From: Escherichia phage fDHCT2
Direction: 5' to 3' (one strand)
Sequence record: OR427838.1
Length of the DNA: 64,000 nucleotides
The notes below the pieces were generated by a model that was given only the letters and a program-made list of their open reading frames with translations, was not told where the DNA came from and ran no database searches. Numbering within the stretch: the first letter of the stretch is position 1; each line of letters opens with the position of its first letter. Below are positions 1,298 to 29,023 of this stretch, in pieces. The position numbers were made by a program, and so were the translations under genes.

Positions 1298-3553
1298 TTA
1301 AAGCTTACAAGCTGCACAATCGTCGGCTTTAGGAGTTTCGATTTCATAATCGTCAGTACCAGAGCCATCACGGGTATTATGATAATAAAGGTTCTTACCA
1401 CCAAAGTACCAGAAATATAACAGGTCATCAAGCATTACCGACATAGGAACTTTTCCTTTCTCATAATTCTGAGGGTCGTAATACGTATTCGCTGATGCTG
1501 ATTGGCAAACCCATTTCAACATAATTGCTACTTGGGTAAGATAAGGTTTATTACCTTTCTTAGCGAGGCTCCAAGCATAATCATAGAGGCCTTGGTTATG
1601 TTCTACATTAGGAACTACCTGACGGAAGTTACCTTCTTTAGATTCTTTAATACTTACCGGACCACGCGGAGGTTCGATACCGTTGGTAGAGTTGGAAACC
1701 TGGCTGCTTGACTCGCATGGCATAAGTGCTGATAATGTGCTATTACGGATGCCATGTTTAACCAAGTCTTCCCGCAACGACGACCAGTCACAAACATAGT
1801 TTGGGGCTGCGATTTGGTCAATCTTTTTACTGTACCAGTCGATAGGAAGCTCGCCTCGAGACCATTTAGTGTCTGAATAATACTCGCAAGGTCCTTTTTC
1901 TTCGGCCAGCTTGATTGATGCTCGGATAAGTCCATACTGTAATCTCTCAAACAGTTCATGAGTTAAATCGTTTGCGTCTTCATAAGAAGCAAAGTTGCTT
2001 GCCAGCCATGCTGCGTAGTTAGTAACACCGACACCCAGGTTACGACGTTTCTTAGCCTTCAAAGCTTCAGGAACAGGATAGCTTTGATAATCTAATAGGT
2101 TATCAAGTGCACGTACCTGTACTTCAGCGAGTTCGTTGATTTTGTCTTGGTCTTGCCAATCAAAGTTATCCAACACGAATGCAGACAGCGTACACAACCC
2201 GATTTCAGCGTCCGGACTATTCACATCGGTAGTTGGGATAGCAATTTCACAGCATAGGTTACTTTGGCGAATAGGAGCCTTTTCACGAATAAATGGTGTG
2301 AAGTTATTAGTGTTATCAACGAACTGAGGATAAATTCGTGCAGTGCCTGAACGTTCAGTCATGAACAATTCAAAGAGGTCACGTGCTTTAATACGTTTCT
2401 TACGAATACTAGAGTCTTTTTCAGCCGCTTCATACAATTCACGGAAACGTTCTTGGTCTTCAAAATAAGAATAATAAAGCTCACCACCCATTTCATGAGG
2501 ACTGAACAGCGTGATGTAATCATTTTTACCGAAACGTTCCATCATAAGGTCGTTCAACTGGATTCCGTAGTCCATATGGCGAATACGGTTCTCATCGACC
2601 CCTTTGTTGTTTTTCAGAACGAGCAGATTTTCAACTTCCAAATGCCAAATAGGATAATAAGCAGTAGCAGCGCCGCCACGGATTCCACCTTGTGAACATG
2701 ATTTAACAGCAGTCTGGAAATGTTTCCAGAATGGAATAACGCCTGTATGTTTGACTTCACCCATGCCAATACGAGAACCTTCAGCACGAATCATACCAAC
2801 GTTGATACCAATACCTGCACGTTTAGAAATGTATTCAATTATTGAGTTAGCAGTTTTGTTAATAGATTTCAGTGAGTCGCCTGCTTCAATAACCACACAA
2901 GAACTAAATTGACGGGTTGGTGTACGTGCCCCAGCCATAATAGGAGTTGGTAATGAAACCTGACGGGTACTTACAGCATCATAAAAACGAATAATATGGG
3001 CTAAACGGTTCCCTGGCTCGTCTTGGTGTAAGGCCATGCCAATACACATGATAGCGAACTGAGGGGTTTCGTAGATTTTACCGGTTGTTTTATCTTTAAC
3101 CAGATATTTCTCTTTAAGCTGCATCGCCCCAGCATAAGTCAATTCGAAATCGCGTTCATGCTTAATATGAGATTCTAAGAAAGTAATTTCTTCTGCAGAG
3201 TAACGAGATAACAACTCAGGGTCATATTTACCTTCGTTAACACAATAGGAAATATGGTCAATAAAACTACGCGGTTCAAACTGGCCATAAACTTCTTTAC
3301 GCAGGGCAAACATCAATTGCTTTGCAGCAACATACTGATAATCAGGTTCTTCAACCGAAATAAGGTTAGCTGCTACCTTAACAGTCAGATTCTGGATATC
3401 TTTGGTAGTCATACCATCACGAAGGTGGGTTTTGATTTCTTCGTATAATTCATATGGGTCGATTTGGGTTCCTTCACAGCCCCAAGTCAGAACTTTAATA
3501 ATTTTTTGTGCGTCAAAATCTTGGGATACACCACTACTCTTTTGTACTTGCAT
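1298..3553 (-). CDS. nrdA: Ribonucleotide reductase alpha subunit
   Basis: 751 aa (T4 NrdA about 754); class I RNR large-subunit blocks incl. C-terminal redox cysteine tail CAACKL. Confidence 0.95.
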   Translation of the reverse strand: MQVQKSSGVSQDFDAQKIIKVLTWGCEGTQIDPYELYEEIKTHLRDGMTTKDIQNLTVKVAANLISVEEPDYQYVAAKQLMFALRKEVYGQFEPRSFIDHISYCVNEGKYDPELLSRYSAEEITFLESHIKHERDFELTYAGAMQLKEKYLVKDKTTGKIYETPQFAIMCIGMALHQDEPGNRLAHIIRFYDAVSTRQVSLPTPIMAGARTPTRQFSSCVVIEAGDSLKSINKTANSIIEYISKRAGIGINVGMIRAEGSRIGMGEVKHTGVIPFWKHFQTAVKSCSQGGIRGGAATAYYPIWHLEVENLLVLKNNKGVDENRIRHMDYGIQLNDLMMERFGKNDYITLFSPHEMGGELYYSYFEDQERFRELYEAAEKDSSIRKKRIKARDLFELFMTERSGTARIYPQFVDNTNNFTPFIREKAPIRQSNLCCEIAIPTTDVNSPDAEIGLCTLSAFVLDNFDWQDQDKINELAEVQVRALDNLLDYQSYPVPEALKAKKRRNLGVGVTNYAAWLASNFASYEDANDLTHELFERLQYGLIRASIKLAEEKGPCEYYSDTKWSRGELPIDWYSKKIDQIAAPNYVCDWSSLREDLVKHGIRNSTLSALMPCESSSQVSNSTNGIEPPRGPVSIKESKEGNFRQVVPNVEHNQGLYDYAWSLAKKGNKPYLTQVAIMLKWVCQSASANTYYDPQNYEKGKVPMSVMLDDLLYFWYFGGKNLYYHNTRDGSGTDDYEIETPKADDCAACKL

Positions 3554-25711: not shown

Positions 25712-26161
25712 TTAGTAAGCCTGCAGAACGAATTTGAAGTTATCAGCCAACATACGGTTCATTTCTTCCAGTGTCTGGAAGTCGGAACTATGATTGCGAG
25801 TGAAAGCCATTGCAATTTGACCCTTACCAAAACCTGTAGTCAGAGGTTTCATTTTAGAAGCTGGTACATAAAGAACTTCATACACAACACCATTCACTGC
25901 CATAGTACGAGCTGATTGGGAACGTTTCTTACGAATGTTAGCCACGATACCATCAAGACCTTGAGCAGAACGTTGATTACCGACATAAAAACGAGCAGCT
26001 ACGACACGAGAATCAGCGCCACCTTTAACAAAGAAGTAGAAGCCTGGCTGAGCAGAGATTTCTTTAGAAGGTTTACCATTTTGGTATTCACCATTCTTAA
26101 CATAAGCAACAGTGGTAGCACCAGCAGACAGAACGTTACGGCGAGTCATATAAGTATTCAT
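25712..26161 (-). CDS. Hypothetical protein (identity not resolved; could correspond to a T4 ndd-region gene)
   Basis: 149-aa ORF. Confidence 0.5.
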
Positions 26162-26593: not shown

Positions 26594-26806
26594 TTATTCA
26601 GCGTCAACAGAAATAGCCATCAGTTCATCAACGGTAAGACATTGTACACTTGGCCCTACACAAAAGCGCTTAGTTGAATCATAGAGGTCTGTAGCATTTA
26701 CAGGCTGCAATTCAGTACCAACTTGCAAAGGAGAAATGCGAATCAATTGTTGCCCATTATGTAATACAAAGCTCTCACCAACTGCGACATCTTTAAAAAG
26801 TTTCAT
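26594..26806 (-). CDS. Hypothetical protein (start refined to ATG 26806 with GAGGA SD)
   Basis: Track ORF 26594..26848. Confidence 0.45.
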   Translation of the reverse strand: MKLFKDVAVGESFVLHNGQQLIRISPLQVGTELQPVNATDLYDSTKRFCVGPSVQCLTVDELMAISVDAE

Positions 26807-26816
26807 AATATTTTCC

Positions 26817-26927
26817 TCAGAAGTTAAAGAATACACGTACATGGTCAATCATAAAAACTATTGGGAAAATGCTCAATACTACTAACAACACAAACATGTT
26901 CCAAATTGCTTTAAGTAAGTTTTTCAT
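26817..26927 (-). CDS. Putative 36-aa membrane peptide (not in ORF track)
   Basis: GGAG SD; hydrophobic MKNLLKAIWNMFVLLVVLSIFPIVFMIDH...; directly downstream of early promoter element. Confidence 0.3.
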   Translation of the reverse strand: MKNLLKAIWNMFVLLVVLSIFPIVFMIDHVRVFFNF

Positions 26928-26941
26928 AATCATCTCCATTA

Positions 26942-26982
26942 GTTGATAGGTCTATAATATCATGTCTAATGGAGATGTAAAC
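26942..26982 (-). promoter_or_regulatory. Early-type promoter element
   Basis: GTTTAC-N17-TGA-TATTAT-AGACCTATCAACTA. Confidence 0.5.
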
Positions 26983-27072
26983 TGATTTATGCCAATTTCC
27001 ACAACAATAAACTAAAACATACACAAATCACCGGGATACAGGTCAACCAAATAAGGCACCACATTTTGCTGC

Positions 27073-27333
27073 TCAAAACACCACCTCTTTAATTTCCATA
27101 AACCCATCATTCAGTGCATGGCGGAGTTCATAATGGATATCTATACCATCGACATTATCTAATTTACCGTCGATAAGTTTTTGTAAATCTTTTTTTGACG
27201 CTATCAAAGGACGAAGAAATCTACAATTAGAAAGGGATAATTCCGTAATAACATCTTCACCTGAGGCATCGTACATTGCGGCAACAACTTTACCTGTAAC
27301 TTTGTGTTTAGCGTAATATAATTTGATATTCAC
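27073..27333 (-). CDS. Hypothetical protein, tandem paralog A
   Basis: 86 aa; N-terminus M.IKLYYAKHKVTG shared with adjacent gene. Confidence 0.5.
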   Translation of the reverse strand: MNIKLYYAKHKVTGKVVAAMYDASGEDVITELSLSNCRFLRPLIASKKDLQKLIDGKLDNVDGIDIHYELRHALNDGFMEIKEVVF

Positions 27334-27593
27334 AATTCCACCTCAATGATTTCAAGTTGATTTTCTTTGATAGCTTTCTTGATACAATTATTCACAATAT
27401 TATCCCAAGAATCGTTTAGCTCGCCCTTCGCCATACGTTGAAGATGCTCTTTTGTGGACAAATAAGGCTGGTCTGAATCCCATCTAGATAAGAACAATGA
27501 AGTAAAAGTATCACCTTGGTTATTGGATGAAGTTGTAAATGCAATAAACTCCCCAGTAACTTTATGCTTAATATAATAAAATTTAAATTTCAT
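27330..27593 (-). CDS. Hypothetical protein, tandem paralog B
   Basis: 87 aa; MKFKFYYIKHKVTG; ATGA overlap with paralog A. Confidence 0.5.
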   Translation of the reverse strand: MKFKFYYIKHKVTGEFIAFTTSSNNQGDTFTSLFLSRWDSDQPYLSTKEHLQRMAKGELNDSWDNIVNNCIKKAIKENQLEIIEVEL

Positions 27594-27616
27594 TTTGTTT
27601 CTCCAGTTTGGTAACT

Positions 27617-27660
27617 CAGTATGGAATCATTATACATAGACTCCATACTGATGTACACTA
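27617..27660 (-). promoter_or_regulatory. Candidate promoter with -10 embedded in a 9-bp inverted repeat
   Basis: cagtatgga...tccatactg flanking TGTATAAT on minus strand. Confidence 0.3.
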
Positions 27661-27668
27661 CTTTTTAA

Positions 27669-27928
27669 TTAATTGTGCATTTGTTCTTTAACTTCTTTAT
27701 ATGCACCAACTGCATTCACGACCCCAGTAAAATCTGCTGTTCCGCGATAGAGATAGAAAGCAATTTCAGTCAGGTGATAGACTTCAAATTCTGAAAGATA
27801 AACGATAACGTCATAATATGCAACTTGACCCTGGACTTCGTTGAATGCTACATCAAAAATTTCATGGGTCGGAAAATTGATGCTTGAATAAGAATTTGTT
27901 TGATGTTTTGAGTAGTAACTTGTTCCAT
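27669..27928 (-). pseudogene. Small gene apparently split by a frameshift near a 5-nt homopolymer (27855-27859)
   Basis: ATG 27928 with GAGGA SD opens a 26-codon frame ending 27848; adjacent frame is open for about 90 codons to stop at 27669 but has no start codon. Confidence 0.35.
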
Positions 27929-27975
27929 GATAATGTCCTCATTTGTTGGTGTAAGGACATTATTACATGGTTGGT

Positions 27976-28569
27976 TCAGCTTGTAAACCGGTGATAGGGA
28001 AATTTTTCTTCTGAACAAGAACGGAGGTACCAACCATCCCCTTGTGACTTCTGCACAAAACCAGACTCAGGAACGAAAGCCCCAGGTCCAGCAAGGAATT
28101 TTGGTTTAAATCTATAGCCTTTGAGAGTCTCTTTTACATCGAACATAATCATAAGGTCAGCAAGCTTGTGTTGCATAAAAGGACCAAGATTGACCCCGTA
28201 ACCATGCGGATAATCACCCTGGTGACCAGTATGCACGGATATCCATTTGGAACCAGACTGATGAGTCTTGACTTCAATTCTTACGCCTTCCTTCGAAACT
28301 ACATCAAATGCAAAGGAATAAGGATTATCGTAATCTTCATCGCCACCACATAAAAAACCGGAGGTCCATTTAGCAATAGCTTGTTCAGCCATTGTAGCCA
28401 CCATACATCTTTGCATGACTTGCTCACGGTCCTGACCAGGGTCTTTACGCAATGAATACCTGGCAGTGTCTACAATCTTTTGCAGGGATTCGGGTGTTAA
28501 GTCTTCCTTTGTATAAAGAAAGGAGGGCATCTTTTTCAGATGCTCCCATGTTTTACTCTTCTGAATCAT
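27976..28569 (-). CDS. Hypothetical protein
   Basis: 197-aa ORF downstream of rIIB region. Confidence 0.5.
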   Translation of the reverse strand: MIQKSKTWEHLKKMPSFLYTKEDLTPESLQKIVDTARYSLRKDPGQDREQVMQRCMVATMAEQAIAKWTSGFLCGGDEDYDNPYSFAFDVVSKEGVRIEVKTHQSGSKWISVHTGHQGDYPHGYGVNLGPFMQHKLADLMIMFDVKETLKGYRFKPKFLAGPGAFVPESGFVQKSQGDGWYLRSCSEEKFPYHRFTS

Positions 28570-28822
28570 CTTTTACCTCATCGATACCGACGATTCCCCG
28601 GATATGAAGCTCGCCATAGTACAAACGGTCATTATCATCAAATGTATCAGAATCCGGGTCAGGGAATTCCCCAACAACTACTTCATCACATTCCAACCAG
28701 CCATAGTGAACATCACCTTCATGCTTGATGAGCTTACCGCAGTAAACTATTCCTGCATAATGGTGACCCCGGAGATTTGAAACTTTGATGCCACGGTCTG
28801 ACACATTGAAATGCTTAATCAT
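28553..28822 (-). CDS. Hypothetical protein
   Basis: 89-aa ORF. Confidence 0.45.
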   Translation of the reverse strand: MIKHFNVSDRGIKVSNLRGHHYAGIVYCGKLIKHEGDVHYGWLECDEVVVGEFPDPDSDTFDDNDRLYYGELHIRGIVGIDEVKDDSEE

Positions 28823-28825
28823 AAT

Positions 28826-29023
28826 TTATTCACCAAAATAAGAGATACGAGTTGCCAGTACATGAGCATAAGCGCCCATCGCATCCAACTGGGCAATCAG
28901 TAACCCTTGTTGACGGATATCAAGAGTTTCAAAAACACCACCTTTAATAAACTCTTCAAGAGCATTAATTTTCAGGACCAGTTGGTCGTATTCTTCAATT
29001 ACACGTGCTTGGAAACCTAACAT
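28826..29023 (-). CDS. Hypothetical protein
   Basis: 65-aa ORF; GAGGAA SD; hairpin just upstream. Confidence 0.45.
   Translation of the reverse strand: MLGFQARVIEEYDQLVLKINALEEFIKGGVFETLDIRQQGLLIAQLDAMGAYAHVLATRISYFGE

Follow-up and report, generated by a model that had tools for sequence, protein, structure and literature searches.

Two overlapping genes of one family

The window analyzed here is the whole 64,000-nucleotide (nt) stretch of Escherichia phage fDHCT2 (sequence record OR427838.1), and the element in question is a pair of small genes at positions 27073-27593, designated as copy A and copy B. Copy A (27330..27593) is the upstream gene and encodes 87 amino acids (aa) from an ATG start, and copy B (27073..27333) is the downstream gene and encodes 86 aa from a GTG start. 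The genes are co-oriented on the minus strand, and the plus strand within 27073-27593 holds no open reading frame (ORF) of at least 30 aa. Both belong to the phage protein family phrog_2390: A is of the "A type" of Tequatrovirus, Mosigvirus and other phages, and B is of the "B type", which was seen only in Dhakavirus/Gaprivervirus-like phages. The N-termini are MKFKFYYIKHKVTG (A) and M(GTG)NIKLYYAKHKVTG (B).

A sequence-only reading of this DNA, made before the present analysis, had proposed a tandem pair of 86 and 87 aa with a common N-terminal motif, M-x-x-K-x-YY-x-KHKVTG, and an overlapping ATGA junction. The coordinates were exact, with both genes on the strand that the reading had left unstated, and the motif was found in A and in B. 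The junction was correctly described as a 4-nt overlap, with the letters misread: the coding strand has GTGA (TCAC on the plus strand, 27330-27333), in which the TGA stop codon of A overlaps the GTG start codon of B. Such an arrangement would suit translational coupling. ATGA is the form taken by the equivalent A/B junction in a metagenomic relative (contig L018).

Homology and predicted fold

BLASTP aligned A and B over their whole length with 30 identities in 86 positions (35%; E value of 2e-14). Smith-Waterman comparison against a background of 2000 shuffles gave a z-score of 22.5 for the full length and 10.3 from residue 15 to the end, and 0 of the 2000 shuffles reached the observed score in either case. 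The likeness thus extends beyond the first 14 residues, which rules out a chance similarity confined to the N-termini. Both proteins matched the phrog_2390 profile over positions 1-87 of 87, with E values of 8.4e-38 (A) and 1.5e-34 (B). AlphaFold2 models built from family alignments have the same topology, β1-β2-β3-α1-β4-α2-β5, with a predicted template modeling score of 0.80 and mean predicted local distance difference test scores of 92.1 (A) and 92.0 (B). Foldseek searches against BFVD matched family members with template modeling (TM) scores of 0.83-0.97, and these are only uncharacterized proteins of T4-like phages. A and B are true paralogs of one phage-only family of small proteins, and the sequence-only reading was right that the likeness goes on beyond the N-terminal motif, as is evident from the BLASTP alignment, the shuffle z-scores, the end-to-end phrog_2390 matches and the common predicted fold.

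Eighteen positions are conserved in both clades, including Lys4, Tyr6, Tyr7, Lys9, His10, Lys11, Thr13, Pro43, Gly57 and Glu84. Another 12 are conserved within each clade yet differ between A and B, and 4 of these 12 are located in the β3-α1 loop. Both proteins have a mass of ~10 kDa and an isoelectric point of ~6, with a basic N-terminal hairpin and an acidic remainder. The maximum hydropathy over 19 residues is 0.14 and 0.78 in the two proteins, and neither contains a long hydrophobic stretch.

Members of the family are already present in GenBank as hypothetical proteins, for example CJ20_052/CJ20_053, VR7ORF287c and APCEc01_032. The labels "DUF5376" (phage Shinka) and "COesterase domain" (EAWsc9) attached to homologs could not be reproduced with Pfam and were treated as spurious or outdated. 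A literature search covering the family, accession numbers and anti-defence genes of the denB region found nothing on a phrog_2390 protein.

Mosaic structure of the pair

The window derives from a T-even phage, and its flanks are 92-93% identical to Dhakavirus phages such as JS98, WG01, QL01 and IME08. Within this Dhakavirus-like backbone lies a recombinant patch of ~1.9 kb (27096..29023) with 93-98% identity to Gaprivervirus-type sequences, comprising the body of B, A, a broken 91-aa ORF, denB, a gene for a DUF7418 protein and a homolog of Sequestin. Of the proteins encoded in the window, Ndd matches its Dhakavirus counterpart with 98.7% identity and DenB its Gaprivervirus counterpart with 98.5%.

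Sliding identity along the region separated four segments. The DNA downstream of B (26700-27070) is 95-100% identical to Dhakavirus LHE83. The body of B (27096-27300) is 97-98% identical to MN01, a phage that has no A, whereas the B genes of the pair-bearing phages reach just 72-85%. A (27330-27593) has a nucleotide identity of 98-100% to the A genes of DCP80, CJ20 and 212, the B genes of which are only ~77% identical to that of the window, and the DNA upstream of A as far as ~29023 is of the Gaprivervirus type (93-95%). The mosaic breakpoints are located at both ends of B, i.e., at gene boundaries. The combination of a DCP80-like A with an MN01-like B is absent from all 7 of the other tandem pairs (six in GenBank and one on L018). 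The window pair is a recombinant mosaic, with separate donor lineages for A, for the body of B and for the DNA downstream. As the closest phage differs for each of the three, the copies were joined and reshuffled by recombination.

Divergence, phylogeny and selection

A neighbor-joining tree was constructed from 33 distinct family sequences with 60 bootstrap replicates. The window A groups with the family sequence P0002 and the Tequatrovirus members of R5505 and T4_ev151 (bootstrap 100; 68% aa identity), and P0006 and P0007 form another group with the A genes of LHE83 and FB (bootstrap 100). For the window B, the partner in the tree is the MN01 B (bootstrap 100; 93% identity), inside a clade limited to Dhakavirus and Gaprivervirus phages. 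Pair-bearing and single forms are interleaved across three subclades of B.

A and B are 31-35% identical in amino acids and 51% identical in nucleotides, with a synonymous divergence (dS) of ~1.6; comparisons among A subtypes gave saturated dS values (>2). The ratio of nonsynonymous to synonymous divergence (dN/dS) was 0.07-0.24 for A against close and distant A genes and 0.10-0.26 for B. This purifying selection on both copies indicates that A and B are working genes. Judged by their sequences, A and B diverged anciently and are not each other's closest relatives. The local duplication with divergence that the sequence-only reading had proposed was not borne out, since the copies are not sister genes, have a dS of ~1.6 and were assembled from different donors.

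Distribution of the family and contents of the slot

A tblastn search of 50,697 phage records found the family in ~670, nearly all of them T-even phages of Escherichia, Shigella, Yersinia, Salmonella and Citrobacter. A member is located directly after denB in Tequatrovirus, Mosigvirus, Dhakavirus and metagenomic T4-like phages (as regards every T-even genus opened), and one ORF intervenes between denB and the family gene in Gaprivervirus (91 aa) and Moonvirus (63 aa). Approximately 99% of the family-bearing phages have a single copy, either A or B. With a cut-off of at least 60% identity, the B-type gene was detected in ~80 records and is the sole copy in ~74 phages. A followed in tandem by B occurs in 6 of the ~670 family-bearing GenBank records, or 6 of the ~80 B-bearing ones; the arrangement is therefore already deposited, unnamed, in six GenBank phages. 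Three of these (DCP80, CJ20 and 212) have a Gaprivervirus-type A that is 97-99% identical to the window A, and the other three, the Dhakavirus phages LHE83, FB and E33, have an A of a different subtype, with 51% identity to it. The metagenomic contig L018 likewise holds a tandem pair. Copy B of DCP80 (L005, 2071-2337) is annotated from an internal methionine (2071..2295), and its full GTG-started ORF is intact.

In the Gaprivervirus-type context, the slot follows a single conserved intergenic sequence and occurs in four states: only B (VR7), B preceded by an unrelated ORF of 51 aa (MN01 and EAWsc9), A followed by B (the tandem pair) and only A (metagenomic contig L025). The 51-aa ORF (MKPAQYAMTLYLEVNG...) stands at the place of copy A in MN01 (L007, 2342-2497) and in EAWsc9 (L002, 3168-3323). 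The possibility that it is a decayed A was rejected because its sequence is unrelated. The tail of B and the sequence that follows (GAGGTGGTGTTTTGAGCAGCAAAATGTGG...) are homologous to the tail and downstream sequence of single A genes, indicating that A and B occupy the same genomic slot. Immediately downstream of B lies a minus-strand mini-ORF (26987..27064) for a hydrophobic peptide of 25 aa, MWCLIWLTCIPVICVCFSLLLWKLA, homologous to T4 ndd.6. In single-A genomes the start codon of this mini-ORF overlaps the stop codon of A (ATGA or GTGA); behind B this start has been lost (TTTTGA), and just an internal ATG is left.

Reference T4 has no gene of the family, though denB is present. Between denB and ndd.6 it has a mini-ORF of 8 codons, MKIAEIEL (L004, 3994-4020; NC_000866, 166993-167019), which consists of a start codon, a single lysine codon and the six final codons of the family gene. 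The mini-ORF is a deletion remnant of the phrog_2390 gene, and the record T4_ev151 has a full 87-aa gene where T4 keeps the remnant.

Outside the T-even phages, a member was found in Klebsiella phage KP13-26 (Stephanstirmvirinae, and thus not one of the Straboviridae; L014, 2007-2258), and a distant member, P0015, with 37-39% identity to both A and B was found on the metagenomic contig L020 (2501-2758). L020 is an 81-kb contig with a DNA_pol_A polymerase gene, and it also carries three tandem paralogs with FRD2 domains at 158-1291. Neither the KP13-26 nor the L020 member has a DenB-like neighbor. A functional tie of the family to denB was rejected on account of these two members and of T4, which has denB without the gene.

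An exhaustive hidden Markov model (HMM) search of 1.84 billion representative proteins yielded only 18 representatives, none in a cellular context, and 3 of the 18 are probably false matches to long, repetitive proteins. A word-indexed protein search also found few relatives. The suggestion of the sequence-only reading that these are accessory genes agrees with these data: ~670 T-even records have the family, reference T4 does not, and it is not found among cellular protein families. A homology search and a survey of presence and absence among relatives, two of the checks that it had named, placed both proteins in phrog_2390 over the full profile and recovered A-only, B-only, A+B and gene-less states.

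Expression signals

Between A and the next ORF upstream there is a single promoter-like site, TGTACA-17-TATAAT (27629..27657, minus strand), with 10 of 12 matches. It fits the T4-type early consensus TTTACW-N17-TAYWAT (PMC4122927). The Shine-Dalgarno-like site GGAG (27601..27604, minus strand), located 7 nt before the ATG, is the candidate ribosome-binding site of A. For B, the hexamer GAGGTG (27339..27344, minus strand) is embedded in the 3'-terminal codons of A, 5 nt upstream of the GTG, and may serve the same role. No promoter-like site was found in the A-B interval. The intergenic sequence upstream of A precedes B directly in VR7.

Given this arrangement, A and B probably share an early transcript, from which B is translated by means of coupling. 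Transcription of both genes would start early from the site at 27657..27629, and translation of B would depend on its own GAGGTG site together with coupling to the termination of A. A point against this reading is that promoter-like sites are no more numerous in the region than in shuffled sequences; the argument lies in the position of the site.

An inverted repeat with 18-nt arms that are 83% complementary (27611..27656) brackets the -10 box of the promoter-like site of A. In all, three minus-strand early-promoter-like sites have a -10 box flanked by inverted repeats, the arms of which measure 10-18 nt (26931-26977, 27611-27656 and 27930-27963). Their architecture recalls the promoter/stem-loop (PeSL) elements linked to module shuffling, with a layout that departs from the published one (PMC4122927).

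Genomic setting

The pair is located between ndd (25712..26161; PF06591) and denB, the gene for endonuclease IV (27976..28569), in a part of the classical non-essential rIIB-52 region, which is hyperplastic. In the order of transcription, the genes for the PF21825 protein and the DUF7418 protein are upstream of denB. The PF21825 protein is the Sequestin homolog (28826..29023, minus strand; 65 aa; E value of 3.4e-19). The T4 member of PF21825, Y16O (denB.1), has been reported to be an anti-Thoeris sponge for 3'cADPR (bioRxiv 10.1101/2025.07.12.664507). The neighborhood of A and B includes the host-takeover and counter-defence genes rIIB, the Sequestin homolog, denB and ndd.

Between A and denB, the 91-aa ORF of Gaprivervirus phages (27669-27928, minus strand; labeled "MafI family immunity protein" in EAWsc9) has been disrupted in the window. 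Relative to MN01 and DCP80, it has a 16-nt deletion at ~27882/27883, which leaves an N-terminal piece of 26 codons (27848..27928) and places the remainder (27669..27881) out of frame. Either the ORF is a pseudogene or the deletion is a sequencing error.

Origin of the tandem pair

All six GenBank pairs have identical last 22 nt of A and the identical joint ...GAAATCATTGAGGTGGAATT|GTGAATATC, although the A bodies of the pair-bearing phages differ by half. The window has the junction and last 22 nt of A found in 212, DCP80, CJ20, LHE83 and FB. The joint of L018 is ...GAATTATGAATATC. Where no A is upstream, B starts with ATGGAT (MDIKL), uniformly among the B-only genes examined, and behind A it starts with GTGAAT or ATGAAT (MNIKL); in both of the latter forms, the fourth base is A because copy A needs its TGA stop codon. 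A single type of A|B joint in the pair-bearing phages implies that the joint arose once or very few times. It has since spread by homologous recombination, for which the intergenic region upstream and the conserved 5' end of B provided the homology arms; the exchanged unit was probably a cassette of A, the joint and the first codons of B. Such exchange by homology is the best explanation for the interleaving of pair and single forms in three B subclades.

As to how the joint first arose, we favor an unequal crossover at the stop/start overlap between an A-only and a B-only genome over an ancient duplication, and hold it with a confidence that falls at or just short of an even chance. The A-only contig L025 ends with ...GAATTGTGA|GCAGC and the B-only genomes read ...ATGG|ATATC. 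Joining the former end to the ATATC of the latter would produce the observed ...GAATTGTGA|ATATC, with no further change needed. The uniform ATGGAT start of B-only genes, the non-monophyly of pair-borne A genes and the rarity of pairs speak in favor of this origin. Several observations weigh against it. The ATGA/GTGA joint is equally expected from a tandem duplication joining the ATGA at the start of A to the ATGA at its end. The deep nodes of the tree have bootstrap values of just 35-40%. In addition, B is nearer to the A genes of Escherichia coli T-even phages (33-40% identity) than to the members from Moonvirus and Stephanstirmvirinae (21-31%), which suggests that B derives from within the group and not from an old separate lineage, and it sits on a long branch, a feature that fits a diverging duplicate better than an ortholog.

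These observations lead to the alternative of an ancient in-situ tandem duplication in an ancestor of Dhakavirus and Gaprivervirus, to which we assign an appreciable probability, clearly below even. Slippage or unequal exchange between the start ATGA and the stop-overlap ATGA would have produced two copies, the downstream one diverging rapidly into B, with later loss of A or B and swapping of A alleles among the T-even phages. Accelerated divergence is typical after duplication, and B is long-branched yet closest to the A genes of the E. coli T-even phages. A starts with ATGAAA and ends with ...TTATGA in L018, L017 and Tequatrovirus, so that a start-to-stop duplication would yield the observed overlap, and A-only, B-only and A+B forms share one genomic context. 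Such a history requires extra allele replacements, however, because the pair-borne A genes are not monophyletic (51% identity; Tequatrovirus versus P0006 groups, bootstrap 100). Simple deletion of A from a pair predicts B genes that start with ATGAAT, whereas all B-only genes examined start with ATGGAT, and pairs are rare among B-bearing records. A duplication followed by rapid divergence within the recent lineage of the window phage would explain the tandem layout, the 4-nt overlap and the common N-terminal motif, and yet we consider it scarcely credible. The identity of A and B is too low and their dS too high, closer relatives of each exist elsewhere (A, 97-99% in CJ20/DCP80 and 68% in Tequatrovirus; B, 93% in MN01), the two copies have separate donors, and selection on both is purifying, neither relaxed nor diversifying. 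Duplication within the recent history of the window genome is excluded.

The overlap itself could be taken as the mark of an obligate two-part system, either a heterodimer or a toxin-antitoxin-like pair. Coupling through overlapping stop and start codons is common for partner proteins, and the junction is kept in all pair-bearing phages. Such a system is very improbable given that ~99% of the family-bearing phages hold only A or only B, that the two are homologs of the same predicted fold and not different parts, and that PADLOC found no match; A alleles also combine with different B alleles, which argues against co-adaptation. The opposite possibility, that B is an unexpressed, decaying remnant behind a functional A, would fit its non-ATG start and the lack of its own promoter between A and B. 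We give it almost no weight, because the B ORF is intact in all pair-bearing phages with a dN/dS of 0.10-0.26, GAGGTG precedes its start, the gene is the sole copy in ~74 phages and its fold is predicted with confidence.

Possible function

As a weakly held best guess from context, each protein may be an early host-takeover or counter-defence binder that blocks or sequesters a host factor or a small ligand. The guess follows from the early-promoter-like site, the restriction of the family to phages, its presence/absence polymorphism and the counter-defence and takeover genes nearby, and is thus one of guilt by association. Each protein would act as a soluble α/β domain of ~10 kDa that lacks a catalytic signature and has a basic, conserved hairpin at its N-terminus (Lys4, Lys9, His10 and Lys11), and two versions that differ in the β3-α1 and α1-β4 loops would broaden the range of targets. 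In its more specific form, phrog_2390 would be an early counter-defence family with a fold not in the PDB, perhaps a binder or sponge acting via the basic hairpin, with A and B as specificity variants; this we regard as unlikely.

Several results count against a binding or counter-defence role. Pairwise dN/dS gave no arms-race signature. Searches of Pfam (with both proteins and nine diverse family members), NCBIfam and PADLOC found no meaningful match, and the best domain-scan score, Cloacin_immun (E value of 0.11), was below its cutoff. Among PDB sequences, a profile search returned no more than weak partial-profile matches to unrelated proteins (best E value of 0.0039 over 19 residues). Foldseek with both models found nothing in the PDB with an E value of 0.001 or less (best values of 0.34 and 0.38, with TM scores below 0.3).

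If the counter-defence role is correct, phages that stack A and B would escape two variants of a host system, the near-universal place of the family behind denB would not be accidental, and the lack of studies on it would be explained by the gap in T4, which does not carry it. DenB triggers retron Ec67, and the retron paper shows only this.

Significance of the arrangement

The arrangement is a typical, ordinary product of recombination in a much-shuffled hyperplastic region of T-even phages. It adds one more documented case of these phages building and reshuffling accessory gene sets, and it is a clean, small example of recombination-driven gene gain, with old alleles in tandem, a joint on a stop/start overlap and four surviving states of the slot. 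The explanation as a whole, namely old A and B versions, a recombinant mosaic pair, an origin by crossover, early expression and a binding role, stands in our judgment at even odds of being right. The main remaining interest is the family itself, which is conserved, under purifying selection, unstudied and confidently predicted to have a fold with no relative in the PDB. Laboratory T4 keeps only the 8-codon remnant, and the family was for this reason never examined. Were the family to act in counter-defence, phages that naturally carry only A, only B or both would be ready material for specificity mapping.

Comparison with known systems

Sponges of immune signals (Sequestin/T4 Y16O, Tad1, Tad2 and Acb2; bioRxiv 10.1101/2025.07.12.664507), to which Lockin also belongs, are likewise short (<100-200 aa), phage-restricted and early; the proteins described here have fewer than 100 aa. 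The A/B pair is located three genes from the Sequestin homolog of the window, in the same early gene cluster. Unlike the sponges, A and B matched no Pfam family, PF21825 included, and no PDB fold at an E value of 0.001 or less, though the PDB holds Tad1, Tad2 and Acb2. With regard to the homo-oligomers with positively charged pockets between protomers that are typical of sponges, the conserved basic N-terminal hairpin of A and B is the sole hint. The comparison serves as a working analogy only.

In contrast to toxin-antitoxin and other two-component pairs, A and B are homologs, are mostly found singly and have no match in PADLOC. At the internal-protein (IP) locus of T4 (Repoila et al., 1994, as cited in PMC4122927), strongly diverged alleles of small accessory genes are likewise exchanged between related T-even phages at one locus. 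The IP proteins are packaged virion proteins, with a known anti-restriction role for IPI*, whereas A and B are putative early cytoplasmic products and two phrog_2390 alleles can sit in tandem.

A further likeness is to the PeSL modules of T4-like phages (Comeau, Arbiol and Krisch, 2014; PMC4122927), in which small early ORFs of hyperplastic regions are swapped, inserted or deleted between close relatives at intergenic promoter elements. The hyperplastic regions of these phages are known to contain promoter/stem-loop elements prone to recombination (PMC4122927, and Arbiol et al., 2010, as cited there). Two details set the pair apart. The A|B joint has no intergenic element and lies on the stop/start overlap, which looks like the product of microhomology or unequal exchange, and the inverted repeat of the window brackets the -10 box, whereas PMC4122927 places the stem-loop just upstream of the promoter. 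In other respects the locus resembles these modules. Its putative 5' boundary has a promoter-like site, then GGAG and then ATG, and a single conserved, promoter-like intergenic sequence precedes a slot upstream of B that is empty or is occupied by the 51-aa ORF or by A. As in the PeSL modules, close relatives differ by indels and replacements, with four slot contents and breakpoints at gene boundaries.

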